Positions 1,855 through 42,699 of a stretch of 44,067 nt of DNA are shown one piece after another. The DNA is from a virus (lineage: Duplodnaviria > Heunggongvirae > Uroviricota > Caudoviricetes), in the IMG/VR virus record IMGVR_UViG_2909303794_000010, positions 1-44,067 of that record; one strand, given 5' to 3'. The notes under the pieces were generated by a model. The model was not told where the DNA came from. It saw only the letters and a program-made list of their open reading frames with translations, and did no database searches. Position numbers and translations under genes: made by a program. Within the stretch, counting starts at the first letter, position 1. Each line of letters starts with the position of its first letter.

Positions 1855-3189
1855 ATGTTTAGCTTAATCATGGCCGGAGAACCGGACGTTTTTGACCGCT
1901 GGCCGTGTATGGATCCTAAGCTTAAAGAAGGCAAGGATAGCTTCTCGATGTCCCGCATGCTAGAAGGCACCCCAAGCGATATTTACAGTAAATTAACACC
2001 AATAAGACCTGATACCTTAAGAGAACTCGCCAAGCTACCGGTGTTGTTCATGACCGAAACTTATACAAAAGATGATGAATATGATACAAACAAGTACATC
2101 AGGATCAGGCTTGGGGAAATAAAAAATTTACATAAAGATGGTGGCGATATTTTATTTTCTTTCAAGATTAATCATGATTTTGGAGAAATAACAAACCCCC
2201 AAACGGCATTATATAAAGAAACCCTGGGACTAGGAGCTTTCGGGTTAAGTCGTACACATTGGGCAGTAAAAGATAAGGATTTGAATATTGTTCTGGAATG
2301 GCTTGGTTTAAACAAGAAAAATAACCATTCGAAAGGTACAATCAAATTAAAAAAACAAACATACCCAGTAGCCGAGAATATCATAGATTATCTTAATTTT
2401 ATTAAGAAATACCATCATGATGGTCTCATTACCTTTTATCGTGGACACTCTAAAAGCTCATATGAGCTTGTCCCCTCTCTTTACAGAAAAAATCAAAACG
2501 GGACGTACAGGCATCTTGCTTCAGAATCTGATTTAGTACGTGAAATACTCAGCGCAAGACCAAATGAATTTAAGGAGGATAAATTTACGATTGATAAACT
2601 TGTCCGCATGCAGCATTATGGCTTGCCTACGAGACTCCTAGATATTACATCTAACCCACTGATAGCATTATATTTTGCTTGCTGTTCGAACCCCGATGAA
2701 AACGGACAGGTGATTTCGTTTTCAACAAACAGAAAGAAAATTAAATATTTCGACTCAGATACAGTTAGCTGTATAGCAAACTTATCACTTTTATCTTACG
2801 ATGAGCTGGAAAAATTGTCATCCATTGATGCCAGAAAAGGTACTACAGAGGTATCTGAAATCACTGATAAACTTGCGGACCTTATACAGAATGAAAAATC
2901 ATATTTCAGAAGCAGAATAATTCCTGATGACTTAAAGAAAGTTGTTTTCCTTAAGGCTAAAATAAATAATGAACGCATACAGTCTCAGGCTGGCGCCTTT
3001 CTTCTGTTCGGACTTGATCCAATTTTGCCGGAAACAGATGCTGAGTTTCCTCTTAACAGACTCGAGATAACAAACAAAAATAAAATTCTGGAAGAGCTGG
3101 CGCAGCTTAATATATCCGAAAGCACTGTATACCCCAGCATGGAGAAAACGGCAGCGGAAATTACAAAAAAGTTTTTATCGGTATCATAA
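1855..3189 (+). CDS. FRG-domain protein (444 aa) with an unassigned N-terminal region of ~190 aa
   Basis: Motifs FYRGHS ... VRMQHYGLPTRLLDITSNPLIALYFAC match the FRG-domain signature as I recall it. RBS AGGAGA 6 nt upstream of the ATG. AT-rich. Confidence 0.6.
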   Translation: MFSLIMAGEPDVFDRWPCMDPKLKEGKDSFSMSRMLEGTPSDIYSKLTPIRPDTLRELAKLPVLFMTETYTKDDEYDTNKYIRIRLGEIKNLHKDGGDILFSFKINHDFGEITNPQTALYKETLGLGAFGLSRTHWAVKDKDLNIVLEWLGLNKKNNHSKGTIKLKKQTYPVAENIIDYLNFIKKYHHDGLITFYRGHSKSSYELVPSLYRKNQNGTYRHLASESDLVREILSARPNEFKEDKFTIDKLVRMQHYGLPTRLLDITSNPLIALYFACCSNPDENGQVISFSTNRKKIKYFDSDTVSCIANLSLLSYDELEKLSSIDARKGTTEVSEITDKLADLIQNEKSYFRSRIIPDDLKKVVFLKAKINNERIQSQAGAFLLFGLDPILPETDAEFPLNRLEITNKNKILEELAQLNISESTVYPSMEKTAAEITKKFLSVS

Positions 3190-3390
3190 AGGGATAAACT
3201 AAAGGCAACGAAAACCAAGACTGCACAGTCTTCAAGGTGGAACTACTCATCAGGGGGCGGTTTCAGACTCAGGGTGAAAAATCGGAAGCTTCAGTGGCCT
3301 TGAACCACCCCCTATAAATTAACATATCTCAATGTTATCAATGTCTGCTTTTAGCACTGAAAGGACAAGCTAACAGAGTGCAGGTCCGGT

Positions 3391-4881
3391 GTGAGTGAAA
3401 GCAATATAAATCATTTACAAACCTCAGAGGATAGAGAATTGTTTACACTATTGTCATTTAACATTACACACAAAGAAAATGAAATATATGATTGTATATT
3501 TACAGATAATCAAAGGCATATACGAAATCTTCCGTTGAGTAGTATTGTTATTGGCGAAAATGGTTCTGGTAAAAGTTATTTGCTATCTCAGATCGCAGAT
3601 TTCTTTAGATTTATTCAAAGAATCATAAGCAAAGAAAAGAAACCATATTACAAATATGAATCTGCATCAGTTTCATATTTGATTGATTCAAACTTAATCG
3701 TTATAAAAAAGGACAGAAATAAGGTTTTGTGTTTTGTTAATGATGTTCCATCTAATATATTCAATGTAATATTACCAACTAAAGTAATAGCTATGTCCTT
3801 TATGGTTAATGATAAGTTTTCTTTTTCGAGGTTCGAGGAAGACGATTTTTATGATTATCGTGGAGTTAGAGCGACGTCTAATGCTTCTTATACTAGTACA
3901 ATTAAAAGAATGATAACCAACTCATTAATATTGTCGATAGGCTATAGAGATAAACTAAAGGCGGTAAAAGATACTTTGCATTTTTTGGGCATGAGTGAAA
4001 AATTAGCTATTACTTACAATCTCAACAGGAAAACTTTATTAAAAAAACAACCACCACTTAACACCATACTAAAAAAAATAGATGCAATTTTGCGACGAAA
4101 GCAGTACGTTAATGAGAATGATCTTTATAAAATTAAAGAAAATCCAGAAGTCATACTTCATGATATAGCTGTTTTGAGCGAAGAATGCAAGGAGAAAAAT
4201 AGTAGAATACATCTTACCCTTGACCTTAGTGATGAAGGGGGAGTTGTTAAAAAATCATTATTCCAGTCTTTATCACGCTTGGAAAAATTAGAGTTTATTT
4301 CTAACCCTGACGTTGAATTCTACAAAAAAGATAATTTTTCATTTGAAGAAACTAGTTCTGGTGAAAAGAATATTATTTTTACCATTCTTAATTTAATTGC
4401 AAGCATCAAAAATAACTCATTGCTTTTAATTGATGAGCCAGAATTGAGCTTGCACCCTACCTGGCAAATGAAATACATAAATTTCATAAAGAAATCAATA
4501 GCTTATAATTTTGACTGTCACCTTATATTTGCATCACATTCACATTTTATGGTGTCGGATTTAGAATCAGAATCCTCATCACTAATATCTATAAATCAAT
4601 GTAATGGGAAAAGAATATGTGAGCACATTGAATATAGCACATATGCTTGGTCCGTAGAAAATATACTGTACAAGGTTTTTCATTTACGTACCATTAGAAA
4701 TGCTCAAGTCGAAATGGATCTTTATGAATTATCAGGTCTCATATCTCAAAAAAGCTCAGATATTAAGAGAATGGAGGAAATCCTTACGCATTTGGAAAGG
4801 ATAGTGTTAGATGTAAACGATCCCTTAAATATGATAATAGAACAAGCTAGAATCTATATTGGTGGCTACCATGATAAATAA
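3391..4881 (+). CDS. P-loop ATPase of the AAA_15/AAA_21 (OLD/ABC-like) type, Septu PtuA-like
   Basis: Walker A GENGSGKS and Walker B-like LLLIDEPELSLHP; ~496 aa; start is GTG at 3391 with a weak RBS. Confidence 0.65.
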   Translation: MSESNINHLQTSEDRELFTLLSFNITHKENEIYDCIFTDNQRHIRNLPLSSIVIGENGSGKSYLLSQIADFFRFIQRIISKEKKPYYKYESASVSYLIDSNLIVIKKDRNKVLCFVNDVPSNIFNVILPTKVIAMSFMVNDKFSFSRFEEDDFYDYRGVRATSNASYTSTIKRMITNSLILSIGYRDKLKAVKDTLHFLGMSEKLAITYNLNRKTLLKKQPPLNTILKKIDAILRRKQYVNENDLYKIKENPEVILHDIAVLSEECKEKNSRIHLTLDLSDEGGVVKKSLFQSLSRLEKLEFISNPDVEFYKKDNFSFEETSSGEKNIIFTILNLIASIKNNSLLLIDEPELSLHPTWQMKYINFIKKSIAYNFDCHLIFASHSHFMVSDLESESSSLISINQCNGKRICEHIEYSTYAWSVENILYKVFHLRTIRNAQVEMDLYELSGLISQKSSDIKRMEEILTHLERIVLDVNDPLNMIIEQARIYIGGYHDK

Positions 4882-5488
4882 AATCACTAATGACATCTAT
4901 ATGCCACCATTCATAATGAATAAGATAAACTCGTTTAAACCTTTTGTGGGTGGTAGCTGGGATAGAAAAGATAAAGCGATTATTATTTTTAAACGGTTAT
5001 TGAGAAAGCAGCTATTAACAGCACAGAATAATTGTTGTGCATACTGTGGATTACCATTAGGTGAAACAGGAAAAACAGAAATTGAACATTTGGTTGCAAA
5101 AGGTGGACCTAAAAGGCCAAAGCATATAGAATTTACTTTTGAAGTTGAAAATCTTTATTTATCATGCAATTTATGTAATAGCCCTTTGAAAAAAGGCACT
5201 AAAGAAACCCTTATTTATAAAGATCCCATCTCATACTCTAACTGTACTTTTAGTATTGTACATCCTAGATATGACACACCTAATTTGCATTATTCATGGG
5301 TTGTAAGCGCTGTAGAGGTTCTCATACAAGGAATTACCGACAAAGGTCGAGAGAGTATTAAAATGTTTAAACTTGACTCCCCCCCTCATAATGAAGCACG
5401 TGCTAGAATAGAAATGTTAAGGAGATATAAAATGCTCATTAACTCTCCACAAATTGATCAGATAAATGCAGCCCTTCGATATAATTAA
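4871..5488 (+). CDS. HNH endonuclease, Septu PtuB-like
   Basis: CCAYCG...EIEHLVAK...NLYLSCNLCN HNH/zinc-ribbon motif. The ATG at 4871 overlaps the upstream stop (ATGATAAATAA), implying translational coupling; the ORF track's 4859 start is a TTG. Confidence 0.65.
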   Translation: MINKITNDIYMPPFIMNKINSFKPFVGGSWDRKDKAIIIFKRLLRKQLLTAQNNCCAYCGLPLGETGKTEIEHLVAKGGPKRPKHIEFTFEVENLYLSCNLCNSPLKKGTKETLIYKDPISYSNCTFSIVHPRYDTPNLHYSWVVSAVEVLIQGITDKGRESIKMFKLDSPPHNEARARIEMLRRYKMLINSPQIDQINAALRYN

Positions 5489-5491
5489 CAA

Positions 5492-5519
5492 ATGAAGCCA
5501 CTGCAATAGGTGGCTTCAT
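5492..5519 (+). terminator. candidate intrinsic terminator after the HNH gene
   Basis: 10-bp inverted repeat atgaagccac / gtggcttcat with an 8-nt loop, followed by a short T-containing tract. Confidence 0.45.
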
Positions 5520-5822
5520 TTAAATTCATCAGGTAAATATTGTTATCCTAAATAAATCTGGCAGCTATCAATGTTGAATACATTGATAGGCAGGTTCAGT
5601 TGATTGTGTTAATTATGTTTTTTCAGTCAAACGTCCTCTCTTGGTACATAGCAATCCAAGAGACAGTGGCGTAAAGTCATAGATGGCCGGTGGGAGGTGG
5701 TGGAAATCCTCTCATGCAAAAAATACATAAAATCGATAACGGCTGGAAATCATTCAATACTCGCACTATCGGAAATTCACCAGCCAACCGTGGCACGTTC
5801 TTGCATACGACGTGCTACGGTT

Positions 5823-6377
5823 TCATTTATCTCCGTTCGGAAACTTCTTATACAGTGTCGATATACCAACATCATAGATGATCGCCACCTTCTGGCGAGG
5901 AACGCCTGATGCAATTAATCGCCCGGCCTGCGCCCATTGTTCTGGTGTAAGTTTGGGACGACGTCCACCAATTCGTCCCTGTGCGCGAGCAGCTTCCAGT
6001 CCAGCTTTTGTTCGTTCAACAATCAGTTCACGCTCCATTTCAGCCAGGGCCCCCATCACATGAAAGAAAAAGCGCCCCATTGGGGTACTGGTATCAATTG
6101 AATCCGTCAGACTACGAAAGTTAATGCCTCGTTCGCGCAACCCCTCCACCAGCACGACAAGATGCCGCATACTGCGCCCCAGTCGGTCCAGTTTCCAGAC
6201 CACCAGCGTGTCACCTGCCGATAATGTCCTGAGCAGTTTTTTCAGTCCTGGTCTGTCGGACTTAGTGCCACTGATCTTATCTTCAAAAATCAGCTCACAT
6301 CCTGCACACTCCAGCGCATTACGCTGCAATTCCGTATTCTGGTCATTTGTTGATACGCGGACATAGCCAATAAGCAT
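5823..6377 (-). CDS. serine DNA invertase of the Gin/Pin/Hin family
   Basis: MLIGYVRVSTNDQ...LVVWKLDRLGRSM...GRFFFHVMGALAEMERELI matches Mu Gin closely from memory. Start taken at the MLIGYV Met with AGGGGA RBS; the ORF track start at 6422 is probably too long. Confidence 0.9.
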   Translation of the reverse strand: MLIGYVRVSTNDQNTELQRNALECAGCELIFEDKISGTKSDRPGLKKLLRTLSAGDTLVVWKLDRLGRSMRHLVVLVEGLRERGINFRSLTDSIDTSTPMGRFFFHVMGALAEMERELIVERTKAGLEAARAQGRIGGRRPKLTPEQWAQAGRLIASGVPRQKVAIIYDVGISTLYKKFPNGDK

Positions 6378-6434
6378 GAGCATTCCCCTGAGTAAAAACC
6401 GGGGATGATGCCAGTTAGCCATAATCTCTGCATT

Positions 6435-6460
6435 TTCTTAAACGTTGGTTTGGGAGAAGG
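6435..6460. repeat. gix-like inversion crossover site (left)
   Basis: ttcttaaacgttggtttgggagaagg is an inverted copy of 8303-8328 (13-bp perfect core ggtttgggagaag); it sits ~60 bp from the invertase start and inside the tail-fibre reading frames. Confidence 0.7.
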
Positions 6461-6896
6461 CTCTGCATTACCTGTTGGTGTCCCTGTTCCGTGGCCTTCA
6501 GCTACGCCGCCAACAGGCTGGCTGAAATGCAATGGCGCTGCCTTTGATAAGGTTAAATATCCCCGTCTTGCTACAGCATATCCATCAGGGAAACTACCTG
6601 ATCTCCGCGGTGAGTTTATTCGTGGCTGGGATGATGGGCGCGGCATTGATACAGGGCGTGCTTTATTGAGTATTCAGAGTGATGAAGTCAGAAAGCTCGC
6701 ATTAAAATACTGGGGACCAGCTTCAAACAGTTCACCATCAAAAACATTTGCACTCAGCGACAGTGCCGGTGGCGGGTTGTACACGGATGGAATAAGTCAG
6801 GCAAGCGGTGGGATTATCAACGCTTTTCAGCTCCCTGGCGGTAACGAAACCCGCCCACGAAATGTTGCATTTAACTATATCGTGAGGGCTGCATAA
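6435..6896 (+). CDS. alternative tail-fibre C-terminal segment (silent orientation; needs inversion to fuse to the constant N-terminal part)
   Basis: Tail-collar-like motif LPVGVPVPWPSATPPTGWLKCNGAAF...LPDLRGEFIRGWD; shares the N(V/L)GLGE junction with the expressed fibre at the crossover site. Confidence 0.6.
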   Translation, partial: FLNVGLGEGSALPVGVPVPWPSATPPTGWLKCNGAAFDKVKYPRLATAYPSGKLPDLRGEFIRGWDDGRGIDTGRALLSIQSDEVRKLALKYWGPASNSSPSKTFALSDSAGGGLYTDGISQASGGIINAFQLPGGNETRPRNVAFNYIVRAA

Positions 6897-7498
6897 TGGA
6901 TAATGCTGTATTAAATAGCGAGTTTATTGCCACGAAGGCGGGGAATATTACCGTCTATAACTATGATAGTGAAACACGGGAATATATTTCCACATCAACT
7001 GAATATCTTGCTGTGGGGGTCGGTATTCCAGCATGTTCCTGTCTTGATGCACCTGGCATACATAAGGTTGGTTATGCAATCTGTCGTTCTGTGAATTTAA
7101 ATTCATGGGAATATGTGCCAGACCATCGCGGTGAAATCGTCTATAGCACAGAAACAGGAGAATCAAAAGAAATCACAGCTCCGGGTGATTACCCTGAAAA
7201 TACAACCACTATCGCCCCTTTATCTCCATACGATAAATGGGATGGTGAGAAATGGGTGACCGATACTGAGGCACAGCATAGCGCCGCAGTCGAAGCGGCA
7301 GAAGCACAGCGCCAGTCGCTGATTGATGCTGCTATGGCTTCCATCAGTCTGATTCAACTGAAATTGCAGGCCGGACGGAAACTGACGCAGGCAGAAACAA
7401 CCCGACTTAACGCCGTGCTGGATTACACTGACGCGGTGACGGCAACAGATACCAGCACCGCGCCGGATGTCATCTGGCCTGAACTGCCGGAGGCGTAG
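6896..7498 (+). CDS. tail fibre assembly chaperone (alternative copy)
   Basis: C-terminal ...TSTAPDVIWPELPEA typical of Tfa proteins; follows the alternative fibre segment. Confidence 0.7.
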   Translation: MDNAVLNSEFIATKAGNITVYNYDSETREYISTSTEYLAVGVGIPACSCLDAPGIHKVGYAICRSVNLNSWEYVPDHRGEIVYSTETGESKEITAPGDYPENTTTIAPLSPYDKWDGEKWVTDTEAQHSAAVEAAEAQRQSLIDAAMASISLIQLKLQAGRKLTQAETTRLNAVLDYTDAVTATDTSTAPDVIWPELPEA

Positions 7499-7913
7499 GC
7501 CATTCAATATCGGGGGCTGTTGAAGTATCAACACGCATCAGCAGCACACGGTATTTCTTCCATTGGGTGAGAGTTGAAGTTTCTTCATCAGTTGCAATGC
7601 CCGCATCAACAGCATCCTGACGCCAGGATATTTCACTGTCAGCTTTTGCACGAAATGTGGCTTTCATGTTTTCTGCATCTGATATTTTCTGTTCTGGTGA
7701 AAGCGGCGGCTCATCAACCCATGCAAGGGCCCCTGAAACCATTCCCAGCATTTTTCCTGTTGGCTTATTTCCCCCATTAAATCTGACAGCATCCTCATCG
7801 CTGATTTCAATACCATCCTGCGGCCATGTCCCCTCCTTGATATAACTTTCGTATAGCGCTGCGTTGTAGATTGCATTTTCGGAAGGGCTGTAAACACTTT
7901 TAACTTTATTCAT
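7470..7913 (-). CDS. tail fibre assembly chaperone
   Basis: C-terminal ...TSTAPDIEWPTPP; convergent with and overlapping the alternative copy, as in Mu/P1 invertible segments. Confidence 0.7.
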   Translation of the reverse strand: MNKVKSVYSPSENAIYNAALYESYIKEGTWPQDGIEISDEDAVRFNGGNKPTGKMLGMVSGALAWVDEPPLSPEQKISDAENMKATFRAKADSEISWRQDAVDAGIATDEETSTLTQWKKYRVLLMRVDTSTAPDIEWPTPPAVQAR

Positions 7914-7917
7914 TCTG

Positions 7918-8598
7918 TTATCTCCCTTTCGCTATATAGCAAAGATTAAACCCACCGCTACCTGACATACGGGCTGTAAAACCCGTTCTTGAAGTACCAG
8001 TTGAGTTAACTCCATAAGCAGGCATGGTTGTTGGAGAAAGCAGAGACTCCTGGATATCTGCCATTGTCAGTGTAATTGATTCGACCCGCGCGGGGAAAGG
8101 TAGCGGGAAAACAACATTCGTCCCTGTCTGTCCAACGGGGAAACCGAAAATACCCCATTGTGTAATTACCCCATCCGGCCCCTTACTCCATCCAGATTTA
8201 GGATTCGGCCAGTCTGCTGCTCCAGAGTGCCCCGTTGTAAAACTACTCATATCTGGTACTTGCCCGGTATCCGTTCCGACGTTCCTCGTTGCCGCTTCTC
8301 CCAAACCAAGGTTTTCGAGAGCCGTTTTCACCGTGCCGTCCGATTTGATATCGCCAAACGGATTCTTGCGGCTTAACAGCAGCGCACGAAGCGCGGTAAG
8401 CAGCTGGTCATGCCGCCCCTTCTCCAGGCTGGCACCGGACGCCTCCACCACGCTACAAAGTTCTTCCTGCAACATATCAAAATAGTCATCATCCAGATCG
8501 GTGGCAGGTGTGCCGGTCTGGGGGTTACCACGGGTAAAACCGTTCTTACCCGCGCCGAACTTATCCTTCTGCGCGGTTTTCGTGTCTATGCGATGCAT
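7918..8598 (-). CDS. tail fibre protein (constant N-terminal part plus currently joined variable C-terminal part)
   Basis: Position after the baseplate genes; the crossover site lies in frame at residues ~94-101 (LENLGLGE). Confidence 0.7.
8303..8328. repeat. gix-like inversion crossover site (right)
   Basis: Inverted copy of 6435-6460. Confidence 0.7.
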
Positions 8599-8601
8599 GG
8601 A

Positions 8602-9186
8602 TTACTCCGGATATTTAAAAATTACGTAGGTATGCGACGGACAGAGTTTGTTAAGCACACATTCGACGACGGTGTCGCCCCAGATACGCAGTGCGGAATC
8701 ACAGGGATCACCACATGTCATCCAGGTGGTGTTGGTGGCGGATGGCATGTTGACCTGCCAGTAATACCGCCATTCCGGCGCATTCACCGCGTCAGTACAG
8801 GCCGATGAGCAGGTGAACGTGCTTTTGTCGTATCGCGTGATGGTGGCGTCTGGTCTGCCCAGGGCAGCAAGCTGTGCAAGGTAAAAATCCTCATTGATGC
8901 CGCCCGCCAGGTTAACCTTCGCATCCAGCCGTTGCTGACGCTGGCGAAGGGTCTGCGTCCCTGCGGGAATACATTCATCCGGCAGGCCGCACAGACGCTC
9001 CCAGCGATTTATCAGTTCAGTGGTGGTACGCGGATCCAGCTCCCGCATCAGGGCATCCGCACGCTGATGAACACGGGTTAATGACGGTGCCGCACCGGCA
9101 ATCGCCGGATCGCTGGCTGACCATGCCGGACCGGGCGGCAACAGTGCCGATAACAGGCGGATGTAATCATCGTTTGTCACGTCCAT
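8602..9186 (-). CDS. baseplate/tail protein (P2 gpI-like, Mu gp48-like)
   Basis: Position between the baseplate J-like gene and the tail fibre; family assignment from memory. Confidence 0.55.
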
Positions 9187-10235
9187 GAAATCGTCCCCAG
9201 AACCGCCAGTTCATTTTTCGCAATGGAGATATTGTCTGCCGGTGCAAGCAACTGATGGCTGTATTCCCCGTTCGCACCGGAAATCGCTTCACTGATACGC
9301 GATACCTTCAGTTCTCCCTGCGGATAACCATCACGCAGCAGGAACGAACGCAACTCTGCGGTGATGGCAGCCCGTATTTCCGGTGTGTCCGGCGTCACGC
9401 GGATATGAAAATCCACCGTATGCGCCACCGGCCTGAACACATACAAATCAGAACCTGCCACCGGGGCCAGTGGCTCGATGTGTTGTCGTACTGCCGTTTT
9501 CGTTGACTCTTCCGGAATGGGATTAATCAGGTCACTGCCGGCAATCATCACACCGACAGTTCCCGTTCCCATCCAGTGGCGGTATGTCCATGCGCGGGTA
9601 ATGCCGGGCACTTCTTTAGCCCAGACGACATAGTCCCCGTCAGCCCCGCCCTGCGGCGTCCAGTAATACCGCTCAATGACGCGGGCGCGCCACGTTTCCA
9701 GCTCTTCAGTATCAAATCCGCCTGTCAGAGTGTCAGCCACACCGGAAGACGGCAGACCATTCACCGGCGTGACCAGGATTAATGCCGTACCGTCGTCAGC
9801 GTTACCGACCGCGCCTGCACTTGAGCAGGCGATCGGCACGCGCAGGACACCACCGGAGCTGGTTGCATCGGCAGTTGCCGTGTACTGAACCAGGTCATCG
9901 CGCTGAATAACACTCCCGGCAGTCACTTTCAGGCCATCGCTGACACCTTCCCAGCGCATATACCCGCTGGCAGCCGTGGCCCCCTTGCGCGGACACCGTT
10001 TCATCGCAGCATGTCGCGCCAGCCAGGACTCATCGCACAGGTCAGGAAGCATGTTCATTGCCAGATAATCGATGTAACCGTAAACCGTATGCAGCGCCGC
10101 CGCATACACCTTTGCCCGCACGTCTTCATCCATGCGCCGGAGCGTGTCGCTGACGTCCAGCCTGGCGAATAAATCGTTACGGAGCATACTGATATTTTCT
10201 GCCAGCGTCGGGCGCTGAAATTCACTGTCCGCCAT
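9177..10235 (-). CDS. baseplate J-like protein (Mu gp47-like)
   Basis: Size and position in a Mu-like baseplate gene order; overlaps neighbours by a few bp. Confidence 0.65.
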
Positions 10236-35352: not shown

Positions 35353-35846
35353 TAAGCCCCCACGTAATTCCCTGAGAGATACCACTCTTCACCTGATGCA
35401 GCCCGCTTACTGCTTTTCCGTAAACACCGTTCACGACGCGCCAGAAAATTGTTTCGTTCTGGCTGGGAGTGGCTTTCACGGAATGCCTCCATCCACACCG
35501 TTGCAGCACGACGGTATAAGCCCCTGGACTCCAGTTCTTCCGCCTGGCGGGTCAGGCACAAAATCACACGGGGATCGTTAGTGCCGACATAGAAATTGCG
35601 CACAGGTCTGGTTTCACGAACTGGTTGTGGTTCCGGTTCCTGCGCTCTCTCAGTCAGGCGCGGGAAATGTCTGCGTGTATCTCCTTCACAACGGTGAGCC
35701 ACACGCCCACTCTGACGTAACTTGCTTGCTGACTGCAGAACGCGCTGCCGTGAGTAACCGGCAAAAGCATCCGCAATATCTCCGGAAGTACAGCCCGGAT
35801 GGGCTTCAATGAATTTCTGAACGTCATTCAAAAGACTCATGCTCAC
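35352..35846 (-). CDS. protein with PerC-like C-terminal domain (transcriptional activator family)
   Basis: AEELESRGLYRRAATVWMEAF...ERNNFLARRERCL resembles the PerC/Pch motif as I recall it. Confidence 0.5.
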   Translation of the reverse strand: MSMSLLNDVQKFIEAHPGCTSGDIADAFAGYSRQRVLQSASKLRQSGRVAHRCEGDTRRHFPRLTERAQEPEPQPVRETRPVRNFYVGTNDPRVILCLTRQAEELESRGLYRRAATVWMEAFRESHSQPERNNFLARRERCLRKSSKRAASGEEWYLSGNYVGA

Positions 35847-36784
35847 CCCCTGAATCCTGCCGGGATCTGGCTGTAGTCCACGTTGTCGTAACTGGCTTTG
35901 AAGTACGGGTCTTCGCGTTTTTCGGTGTACGTGCTGACGGACGGCGATAAGCGCAGGGAAAGCTCATCCCATTTTTCCCGCAGCTTCGACGGGCTGAGCA
36001 CGTTACGGCACCAGAACGGATCGCGACTGACGCGGCTGTACATCTCGCAGATTTGTTTATGAGTACGACCATCCTGCACACACATCAGGCGAATTTCGTT
36101 TGCCCAGGCTGTCCAGTTCGGTTCTTTGGGACGAACCACCTCGCCGTCACATTCGGCGGCCTGCTCGTACAGGGCGATGATTTTTTTCCAGAGCCACTGT
36201 GCGCAGGTCAAATCATCCTGCGTTCCCCACTGGCGCTTTTTAGGGCTGAATACAACCGCATCAGGATGGCGAGTTAAAAACTCCTGTTCAGCCGTCTGCG
36301 TGTCCGGTTGCGAAGCGTCCGGACGAGAAGTTTTTTTATCTGACGGATCATGTTTTGATTTTACTGACGGATCCCCGCCAGATTCTGACGGGTGAAAAAC
36401 CGCTTTTTTGCCAGATTTCGACGCATCAAATTTTGACGGGTCAGATTTTGATGCGTCAGATTTTGACGGGTCAGAATCTGACAGTTGAGAAAATGCCGCT
36501 GCCTGAAGCTTCGCAACGTTAAGCTGATAAACATTCGACGCATTGCGGTTACCCTGGCGACGCGCCTTACGCGTTAACCAGCCTTCTGCTTCCAGCCGTG
36601 CGATAGCCGTTCTGACGGTACTCATTCCCGCGCCAATCTGGCGGGCAATGGTTTCAATTGATGGCCAGCACACACCTTCGTCATTACTGAAATCAGCCAG
36701 GCGGGCCATAATTGCCACGCTGGATAATTTCATGCCTGATGCAGCGCAACCATCCCATACATAGCCGGTTAATTTAGTGCTCAT
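35843..36784 (-). CDS. replication initiator, lambda O-like, with in-gene iterons
   Basis: N-terminal HTH-like region, central repeat linker DPSKSDASKSDPSKFDASKS encoded by DNA iterons, C-terminal replication-type domain. Confidence 0.65.
   Translation of the reverse strand: MSTKLTGYVWDGCAASGMKLSSVAIMARLADFSNDEGVCWPSIETIARQIGAGMSTVRTAIARLEAEGWLTRKARRQGNRNASNVYQLNVAKLQAAAFSQLSDSDPSKSDASKSDPSKFDASKSGKKAVFHPSESGGDPSVKSKHDPSDKKTSRPDASQPDTQTAEQEFLTRHPDAVVFSPKKRQWGTQDDLTCAQWLWKKIIALYEQAAECDGEVVRPKEPNWTAWANEIRLMCVQDGRTHKQICEMYSRVSRDPFWCRNVLSPSKLREKWDELSLRLSPSVSTYTEKREDPYFKASYDNVDYSQIPAGFRG
36340..36482. repeat. iteron array (candidate phage replication origin) inside the O-like gene
   Basis: About 7 tandem ~15-16-bp units with consensus ATTTTGACGGGTCAG (attttgacgggtcag x2, attttgatgcgtcag, atttcgacgcatcaa, attctgacgggtgaa ...). 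Confidence 0.7.
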
Positions 36785-42622: not shown

Positions 42623-42669
42623 ATGGTGCCGATAATAGGAGTCGAACCTACGACCTTCGCATTACGAAT
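42623..42669. repeat. right att direct repeat (within the tRNA 3' end)
   Basis: Identical to 1232-1278. Confidence 0.8.
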
Positions 42670-42699
42670 GCGCTGCTCTACCAACTGAGCTATATCGGC
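42624..42699 (-). tRNA. thrW: tRNA-Thr (anticodon CGU)
   Basis: Reverse complement reads GCCGATATAGCTCAGTTGGTAGAGCAGCGCATTCGTAATGCGAAGGTCGTAGGTTCGACTCCTATTATCGGCACCA: cloverleaf-compatible, anticodon loop TT-CGT-AA, T-loop GGTTCGACTCC, encoded CCA. Confidence 0.9.

Follow-up and report, generated by a model that had tools for sequence, protein, structure and literature searches.

Our analysis indicates, with a probability of about 0.93, that positions 5823–8598 of the window (the whole 44,067-nt stretch of DNA that was analysed) form a functional P segment of the e14 type, in which Pin, a DNA invertase of the Din family, works an inversion switch for the phage tail fibre. The locus has the anatomy of such a switch, yields an in-frame fibre fusion in both states and belongs to this family. 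Sequence comparison places the locus closest, among described systems, to the E. coli e14 P segment and its invertase PinE, rather than to the Mu G segment or the P1 C segment: identity of the invertase is 95% to K-12 PinE and 79% to Mu Gin, and the crossover sites match K-12 pix. The initial annotation had read the locus as the switch of Mu G and P1 C. Its proposal that an invertase of the Gin/Pin family swaps a fibre C-terminus together with its chaperone holds, but the assignment shifts to the e14 P segment. The type of switch is already known, invertible tail-fibre segments having been textbook material since the 1980s, and the locus is an ordinary working copy of a long-known phage switch.

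Results

One fibre head and two opposed tip cassettes

The locus belongs to a complete-looking 41-kb SfI/SfII-like myovirus prophage that lies in thrW of E. coli and has genes for integrase, terminase, sheath and tape measure. Its structural and tail module is 97–98% identical to those of the Shigella phages SfI, SfII, SfIV and SfV. The prophage ends are 47-bp att repeats at thrW; the repeat is the 3' end of tRNA-Thr(CGT), and proA is the flanking gene. The att repeat in tRNA-Thr(CGT) and the proA flank rule out e14 itself, which lies in icd. Defence cargo, Septu and PDC-S15, adjoins pin. The features of the locus are as follows.

5823..6377, minus strand: pin, Din-family serine DNA invertase, 184 aa (Pfam, PHROG, identity to PinE and Gin)
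6293..6356, minus strand: putative Fis-dependent recombinational enhancer, 5' end of pin (positional homology)
6405..6896, plus strand: pin-proximal ORF, an 18-aa leader MMPVSHNLCIFLNVGLGE across the left site and then Sv' (ORF, Pfam, PHROG)
6433..6458, minus strand: left, pin-proximal 26-bp crossover site (repeat and pattern search, comparison with K-12 and MEI2B-1023)
6445..8309, no strand: invertible segment, 1865 bp including both central dinucleotides (in-silico flip, comparison of the MEI isolates)
6459..6896, plus strand: Sv', parked tail-collar fibre tip (Pfam Collar 9.3e-15; PHROG tail collar fibre 6.2e-70)
6896..7498, plus strand: tfa', TfaE-like chaperone paired with Sv', 200 aa (Caudo_TAP 1.2e-32)
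7470..7913, minus strand: tfa, chaperone of the currently fused cassette, 147 aa (Caudo_TAP 7.1e-33; PHROG tail fibre assembly 2.6e-52)
7918..8295, minus strand: Sv, variable fibre C-terminus now in the expressed position (Pfam Gp53-like_C 2.2e-10, aa 141–226)
8296..8321, plus strand: right, fibre-proximal 26-bp crossover site (repeat and pattern search, comparison with K-12 and L001/L004/L005)
8296..8598, minus strand: Sc, constant fibre head, 101 aa, ending in ENLGLGE (K-12 StfP N-terminus, PHROG)

The Mu gp48/YmfQ-like and baseplate J genes are followed directly by the constant head Sc. All but one of its 101 residues agree with the K-12 StfP N-terminus, and it matches the PHROG tail fibre N-terminus family at 5.7e-79. 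The minus-strand ORF from 8598 to 7918 fuses Sc and Sv in frame and is the present 226-aa fibre. Sv has diverged from the K-12 StfP C-terminus, and the resemblance of tfa to K-12 TfaP is confined to the C-terminal end. On the opposite strand, the Sv' ORF is 55% identical to K-12 StfE, its DNA is 99.2% identical to the fibre tip of a P2-like phage, and tfa' is 91% identical to K-12 TfaE. The two cassettes converge inside the segment, and each consists of a fibre C-terminus and a Tfa chaperone; the two opposed pairs described in the initial annotation are recognised by the Pfam families Gp53-like_C, Collar and Caudo_TAP. When the segment is flipped in silico, an uninterrupted 246-aa fibre replaces the 226-aa one, so that the fusion is in frame in both states. 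An StfP-type head downstream of ymfQ, followed by alternative in-frame Stf C-termini with their Tfa proteins, is the arrangement that defines a P segment. All four cassette ORFs are open.

The plus-strand copy is probably silent as the DNA now stands, as had been proposed from its orientation. It has indeed no connection to the constant fibre head, but an ATG of its own at 6405 opens a 163-aa ORF. This ORF bears on another view of the locus, in which the switch mainly serves the lysogen: the product of the 6405 ORF would mask outer-membrane receptors, and inversion would be a phase-variable defence beside defence genes. The ORF from 6405 is intact in both orientations (163 aa now, 143 aa when flipped), and equivalent ORFs in relatives are annotated as CDS by RefSeq. 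In K-12, inversion of the e14 P segment is reported to create StfE2, a pin-proximal chimera that is made and blocks adsorption of T2 (PMC12529663), and the neighbourhood of Septu and PDC-S15 to pin would fit such a role. However, there is little similarity between the gp53-like tip and the K-12 StfP C-terminus, which is a component of StfE2, and the search upstream of 6405 gave neither a promoter-like site nor a good ribosome-binding site. The classical host-range role would have an obvious beneficiary, because the prophage seems complete and has a tail module like those of isolated phages (97–98%). We consider it unlikely that defence of the lysogen is the main function. The two roles are not mutually exclusive, and with the same low probability the unused tip may act in the lysogen as a free receptor-masking fragment, a second output besides host range. 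Inversion would then amount to phase-variable superinfection exclusion, co-located with Septu and PDC-S15 in a prophage defence slot.

The crossover sites are inverted 26-bp dyads

The left site reads TTTTCTTAAACG TT GGTTTGGGAGAA on the plus strand and TTCTCCCAAACC AA CGTTTAAGAAAA on the minus strand, with its central dinucleotide at 6445–6446. The right site reads TTCTCCCAAACC AA GGTTTTCGAGAG, with its central dinucleotide at 8308–8309. In inverted orientation the two agree at 21 of 26 positions, and the repeat finder reported a 20-nt arm at 95% for the pair. Each is an imperfect dyad of 12-2-12 layout (internal symmetry 8/12 and 9/12) centred on TT and AA, respectively; two inverted 26-bp dyad sites with matching central dinucleotides are the configuration of the Din family. 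A 19-nt pattern common to both sites has exactly two matches in the 44-kb window and none in 100 dinucleotide-preserving shuffles (chance expectation 0.00). No third crossover site was found in the 44-kb window with up to 7 mismatches allowed, which rules out a multi-site system like Min of p15B or a shufflon.

The left site is identical to the pin-proximal site of K-12 e14 at 25 of 26 positions and to that of MEI2B-1023 at all 26. Over the 19 nt compared, the right site does not differ from that of K-12 e14; it is also identical in MEI2B-1023 and is the same at all 26 nt in the relatives L001, L004 and L005. When the sites were aligned to known crossover sites, as suggested at the outset, they lined up with K-12 pix and Mu gix; the core shared with gix is AAACC-NN-GGTTT. 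Inversion of the e14 P segment by PinE takes place at TTGGTTTGGGAGAAGG repeats (PMC12529663), and here this repeat occurs exactly at 6445–6460 and as its complement, with 15 of 16 positions, at 8294–8309. The sites had earlier been placed at 6435–6460 and 8303–8328. The left one needs only a small correction to 6433–6458, but the right one had been set about 7 nt too far to the right. The core quoted at that time, ggtttgggagaag, lies at 6447–6459, with its complement at 8295–8307.

Both sites are in frame within the fibre ORFs, and the plus-strand junction reads ...LNVGLGEGSALPVG. The repeats encode the junction motif N(L/V)GLGE; translation of the junctions bears out the earlier statement that the sites lie in both fibre reading frames at this shared motif. 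Being coding sequence for a conserved peptide, the repeats could in principle be a GLGE motif inherited by paralogous fibre genes and not recombination sites. However, the match goes past the shared peptide, the 12-2-12 dyad layout is that of hix, gix and pix, and the mosaic boundaries of the cassettes, at 6459 and 8295, are the inner edges of the repeats. The probability that we give to a mere coding motif is close to nil, and the exact inversion between two isolates described below already refutes it.

The invertase gene and a putative enhancer

The invertase gene pin begins at the ATG at 6377; the ORF called at 5823–6422 on the minus strand extends beyond this real start only mechanically, up to 6422. 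Its product has the two parts of a small serine recombinase of the Din family, an N-terminal resolvase domain with the nucleophilic serine (Pfam Resolvase 1.8e-51, aa 4–136) and a C-terminal helix-turn-helix (HTH_7 3.6e-13, aa 139–181), and it matches the PHROG family "DNA invertase" at 9e-97. The N-terminus MLIGYVRVS(9)TNDQ places Ser9 within the catalytic motif, and the protein aligns without gaps to PinE and Gin. These domain and PHROG matches, together with the 79% identity to Gin, confirm the Gin-like serine invertase of the initial annotation. The gene is 100% identical to pinE of E. coli MEI2B-1023 and also to the gene of MEI1-1023.

In a promoter and terminator scan of 5400–9300, sites were no more numerous than in shuffled sequence, and this simple scan gave no sigma-70-like promoter upstream of pin. 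It might be argued from this that the locus is a frozen relic, which has kept the architecture of the switch but has stopped inverting, for example with pin unexpressed, so that the fibre is fixed in its gp53-like form. Decayed relatives do exist: SfIV lacks pin, and its opposing chaperone is interrupted by ISEhe3. Here, in contrast, every part is intact with the four cassette ORFs open, and isolates that occur in both orientations have exactly the same pin gene and sites. We regard a frozen locus as very improbable and keep to a functional switch.

We infer a Fis-dependent recombinational enhancer in the 5' end of pin from positional homology. Two 15-mers of the form G-N13-C, GTATCAACAAATGAC (6356–6342) and GTGCAGGATGTGAGC (6307–6293), span 64 bp, with 96.5 bp between the centre of the first and the crossover centre. 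K-12 pinE and Mu gin both have the first 15-mer unchanged, and each departs from the second by 1 nt. The starts of the two putative Fis cores are 49 nt apart, compared with a spacing of 48 bp for enhancer cores in the literature. The putative enhancer fits the published layout of Hin, with a 65-bp enhancer that has a Fis site at each end and a hix site about 100 bp away (PMC3798978). The literature found on the hin, gin and pin enhancers gave this layout without the sequences of the Fis cores. Both putative cores overlap a highly conserved coding motif. In comparison with Mu gin, synonymous sites were conserved at 11 of 19 positions in pin codons 8–29 and at 46 of 111 in the rest, a difference that is not significant (Fisher p=0.14); the putative enhancer is therefore assigned by position only.

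Both orientations occur in relatives

The E. coli isolates MEI1-1023 and MEI2B-1023 have chromosomes of equal length, and the flanks compared are 100% identical. Between these flanks, a 1878-nt interior is the exact reverse complement in one of the two. The breakpoints lie within the repeats, and a model that sets them at the central dinucleotides accounts for all of the 7.7 kb compared without a mismatch. This pair is the strongest evidence for inversion, because MEI1-1023 and MEI2B-1023 both carry the pin gene and the two sites of the window at 100% identity. Window positions 2600–6459, which include pin and the left site, are 99.92% identical to MEI2B-1023, and all 3 mismatches are in cargo genes.

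Among E. coli genomes at a coverage of at least 80%, 13 have the orientation of the window and 6 are flipped, and both orientations are present inside the single assemblies MS 69-1 and SX12. In relatives, therefore, the DNA between the sites is found both ways, as in other members of the Din family. Both states of the P segment have also been reported to coexist in cultures (PMC12529663; PMC4272514). The initial annotation had named missing isomers and unconserved repeats as the outcome that would count against its proposal; both isomers are found in public assemblies, and K-12 e14 and other E. coli relatives have kept the sites. From sequence identity, we predict that the segment also inverts in the strain of the window itself.

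Discussion

The anatomy suggests how the switch would work. The late operon on the minus strand runs through the baseplate genes into the 101-aa Sc (8598 to 8296), and the reading frame crosses the 26-bp site into whichever cassette faces it, at present the gp53-like tip with its chaperone, which gives the 226-aa fibre. Pin dimers would bind both inverted 26-bp sites and, assisted by host Fis on the putative enhancer at the start of pin, cleave the central AA/TT dinucleotides, rotate and rejoin the ends; the dependence on Fis and the enhancer is presumed from sequence. The 1865-bp segment would thus be turned around, and Sc would be joined to the tail-collar tip as the 246-aa fibre, with the TfaE-like chaperone after it. 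In this way the virions released by a lysogen population may carry two different receptor-binding tips. The tips differ in fold or family (Gp53-like_C and Collar), and because of this they are likely to differ in receptor specificity.

The locus is an allele of the e14 P segment, whose pinE, tfaE and YmfQ are already annotated by RefSeq across thousands of E. coli genomes. It is a place where assemblies of one strain may legitimately differ, or may be mis-assembled into spurious contigs. In phage-host prediction, one orientation in an assembly understates the receptor repertoire of the prophage. The locus also shows the intact ancestor form of the decayed fibre regions of e14 and SfIV.

The e14 P segment and PinE were described by Plasterk and van de Putte (1985, as cited in PMC4272514) and by Kirigo et al. 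(2025, PMC12529663). The gene order is the same as in K-12 e14, ymfQ-stfP-tfaP-tfaE-stfE-pinE (head, cassette, chaperone, opposing chaperone, cassette, pin), and in both a cargo gene follows pin, although the cargo is mcrA in e14 and Septu with PDC-S15 here. The segment is 1865 bp here and 1797 bp in e14 (PMC12529663). The e14 element is a defective 15-kb remnant in icd, whereas the prophage here is a complete-looking 41 kb in thrW. The cassettes have also diverged: the gp53-like tip is weakly similar to the StfP C-terminus, the collar tip differs from StfE in its distal half, and the second chaperone is alike at its C-terminal end only.

The Mu G segment has the same order of Sc, site, Sv and U, U' and Sv', site and invertase. 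The baseplate genes are of the Mu type (gp44–48), and gin has the same sequence as the first putative Fis core at the homologous position. However, the Mu segment measures about 3 kb, its Sc is 169 aa long and its fibre about 500 aa, compared with 1.9 kb, 101 aa and 226 or 246 aa here. The gix sites have GA as their central dinucleotide instead of AA, and they also differ from the sites here in their outer halves. In its other parts the phage does not resemble Mu, and it uses an integrase and att sites instead of transposition.

The P2-like phage KC618326 from E. coli O157:H43 T22, in which the tip of the H gene is invertible, carries the same Sv' and tfa' cassette (99.2% DNA identity over window positions 6442–7511). 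Its invertase gene is 87.6% identical over the 453 nt of DNA aligned by BLAST and 86.5% in the translated comparison, and its sites read TTCTCCCAAACC AA GGTATGCGAGAA. Unlike here, the cassette of this different phage family is joined to a long fibre shaft of the P2 H type. The mosaic boundaries that fall exactly at the sites illustrate the movement of receptor-binding cassettes between unrelated phage families. The Hin/hix system of Salmonella has an invertase of the same family, 26-bp sites and an enhancer in the invertase gene about 100 bp from a site (PMC3798978). Hin flips a promoter, whereas here coding C-termini are exchanged and the promoter need not move.

Organization of the invertible segment

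The ORF listing together with family searches gave the following order, left to right on the plus strand, with the two crossover sites added.

5823-6377, minus strand: serine recombinase (pin), 184 aa, real start at ATG 6377 (Pfam Resolvase, 1.8e-51; HTH_7, 3.6e-13; PHROG DNA invertase, 9e-97)
6433-6458: left crossover site, TTTTCTTAAACG TT GGTTTGGGAGAA
6459-6896, plus strand: tail-collar fibre C-terminus, Sv' (Pfam Collar)
6896-7498, plus strand: fibre-assembly chaperone, tfa' (Caudo_TAP)
7913-7470, minus strand: converging chaperone, tfa (Caudo_TAP)
8296-8321: right crossover site, TTCTCCCAAACC AA GGTTTTCGAGAG
8598-7918, minus strand: 226-aa fibre ORF, with Gp53-like_C in its C-terminal part and a match to phage fibre N-termini in its first ~100 aa (PHROG, 5.7e-79)

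Upstream of the fibre, the minus strand carries Mu gp48/YmfQ-like, baseplate J, gp46, gpV-like and gp44-like genes. A repeat finder returned a single outstanding inverted pair, 6440-6459 and 8295-8314 (20 nt, 95%), and this pair was extended into 26-bp sites according to the 12-2-12 arrangement known from the Din family. Compared in inverted orientation, the sites agree at 21 of 26 positions; they have internal dyad symmetries of 8/12 and 9/12. A 19-nt pattern shared by the two has exactly two matches in the 44 kb and none in any of 100 shuffled sequences, and no third crossover site was found in the window at up to seven mismatches. Both sites are in frame; the minus-strand junction reads ENLGLGE and the plus-strand junction LNVGLGE. 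The initial annotation had described a Gin/Pin-type invertible fibre segment, and these results confirm the observation and, with minor corrections, support the interpretation. Its left site (6435-6460) was correct to within 2 nt; the right site, placed at 8303-8328, was about 7 nt off.

When 6445-8309 was inverted in silico, the 226-aa fibre gave way to one of 246 aa that is uninterrupted and has the collar tip at its end, and the pin-proximal ORF (start ATG 6405) shortened from 163 to 143 aa. The switch acts through an exchange of coding C-termini, as in the Mu G segment and unlike Hin, which moves a promoter. Because transcription and translation arrive through the minus-strand constant head, the cassette currently expressed is that of the minus strand, with the plus-strand cassette presently uncoupled from the fibre head. 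The initial annotation called the plus-strand copy silent. Its detachment from the head makes this reasonable. It is not certain, since the copy starts at an ATG of its own (6405) and activity has been reported for the equivalent chimera in K-12 (PMC12529663).

Inversion in related genomes

The predicted flipped isomer was built and used as a search query, and at a coverage of at least 80% the flipped form was present in 6 genomes and the native form in 13. The chromosomes of MEI1-1023 and MEI2B-1023 are each exactly 4,839,683 bp. Their flanks are 100% identical over the 2,846 nt on the left and 2,977 nt on the right that were compared, and the 1,878-nt stretch between the central dinucleotides in one strain is the exact reverse complement of that in the other. 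The MEI2B-1023 locus matches window 2600-6459 at 99.92% identity, with only three mismatches, all in cargo genes, and has the same Pin protein and the same two 26-bp sites. Therefore, the recombinase gene, sites and putative enhancer of the window are the sequences behind an observed inversion. As regards the inversion machinery, the difference from the MEI locus is limited to the interior cassettes.

In the assembly of E. coli MS 69-1 the region occurs twice, flipped on the chromosome and in the window-like orientation on the 64-kb 'plasmid unnamed3', and the flanking proteins of the copies are identical. A culture of mixed orientation is expected to give this assembler output, and the duplicate is probably an assembly artefact of inversion heterogeneity in the sequenced culture. 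The plasmid is circular and carries a second copy of the chromosomal region, AraC and integrase fragments included, with its P segment turned the other way. Strain SX12 shows the same pattern.

A putative enhancer in pin

In the published layout for Hin, one of the hix sites is about 100 bp away from a 65-bp enhancer that has a Fis site at either end (PMC3798978); in Mu, a stimulating site within the invertase gene is attributed there to Kahmann 1985. The window pin gene contains two G-N13-C 15-mers, putative Fis cores, at 6356-6342 and 6307-6293, which together span 64 bp; the first is centred 96.5 bp away from the crossover centre. K-12 pinE and Mu gin both contain the first 15-mer unchanged, and each differs from the second by one base. 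The cores overlap with conserved coding motifs (VSTNDQ and CAGCE) and synonymous-site conservation shows no significant excess there (p=0.14), so that a recombinational enhancer at 6356-6293 is considered likely by homology, not demonstrated.

The host prophage and its variable modules

The prophage extends from about 1232 to 42669, between perfect 47-bp direct repeats (1232-1278 and 42623-42669) that correspond to the 3' end of the tRNA-Thr(CGT) gene thrW (42624-42699). The adjoining proA is 100% identical to that of several E. coli strains. The prophage encodes an integrase, large terminase, sheath, tape-measure protein and Mu-type baseplate, and Shigella phages SfI, SfII, SfIV and SfV and coliphage vB_EcoM-689R6 share 97-98% identity with its structural half. 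Just outside attL, at 1-1068 on the minus strand, lies a further integrase with the domains Arm-DNA-bind_3, Phage_int_M and Phage_integrase, which suggests another island in tandem at thrW. Four tandem 15-bp CAGATTTTGACGGGT-like units at 36412-36486, within ORF 35843-36784, look like origin iterons inside a replication-initiator gene.

Between pin and attL lies low-GC (0.35) cargo at 1855-5488, which encodes the Septu pair PtuA (9.6e-171) and PtuB/HNH (7.6e-33) along with a protein that has an FRG domain and matches PADLOC PDC-S15 (1.6e-98). In K-12 e14 this position is occupied by mcrA; SfIV has gtr O-antigen genes there, and other E. coli relatives carry LEM-3-like GIY-YIG or DUF4145 genes. 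Therefore, the slot beside the invertase behaves as variable, mostly for defence genes. A strong 13-pair hairpin flanked by T and A runs (5489-5522), between the ptuB end and the pin 3' end, is likely a bidirectional terminator separating cargo from invertase.

The alignment with MEI2B-1023 shows 99.9% identity as far as 6459 and 97.6% from 8295 on, with a collapse between these positions. By this alignment the interior cassettes have been exchanged, and the mosaic boundaries (6459 and 8295) coincide with the inner ends of the inverted repeats. The parked Sv' and tfa' (6442-7511) are 99.2% identical to positions 3001-4070 of the P2-like phage KC618326 locus, where the cassette is joined to a long P2 H-type fibre, with the phage's own invertase and sites on its flanks. 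The stretch of identity starts inside the crossover site, and the comparison points to unrelated phage families having recently exchanged cassettes. In SfIV (locus positions 3491-5061) the P segment has decayed: the fibre and its own chaperone are intact, ISEhe3 truncates the opposing chaperone, and the second tip and pin are absent, with gtr genes instead. The window therefore displays the intact arrangement.

Comparison with the e14 P segment

When 5600-8700 was compared with complete E. coli genomes by megablast, 4,548 of 5,426 gave matches, and the matched features are annotated as pinE, tfaE, YmfQ family, gp53-like and phage tail protein. The order in K-12 e14, ymfQ-stfP-tfaP-tfaE-stfE-pinE-mcrA, is that of the window.

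Similarity of window features to known systems
Invertase to K-12 PinE: 95% identical
Invertase to Mu Gin: 79% identical
Constant head (101 aa) to K-12 StfP N-terminus: one difference
tfa' chaperone to K-12 TfaE: 91% identical
Two tips and second chaperone to K-12 StfP, StfE and TfaP: diverged mosaics
Fibre-proximal site to K-12 pix: identical over 19 nt
Pin-proximal site to K-12 pix: one mismatch in 26

The 1797-bp e14 P segment is inverted by PinE, and also by PinQ in trans, at TTGGTTTGGGAGAAGG repeats, and was inverted in a third of 562 deposited genomes (PMC12529663); the 16-mer TTGGTTTGGGAGAAGG is present at window 6445-6460. Clonal K-12 cultures contain both P-segment states side by side, as shown by PCR and whole-genome sequencing (PMC4272514). 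The inversion system of the window is a locus already described in the literature.
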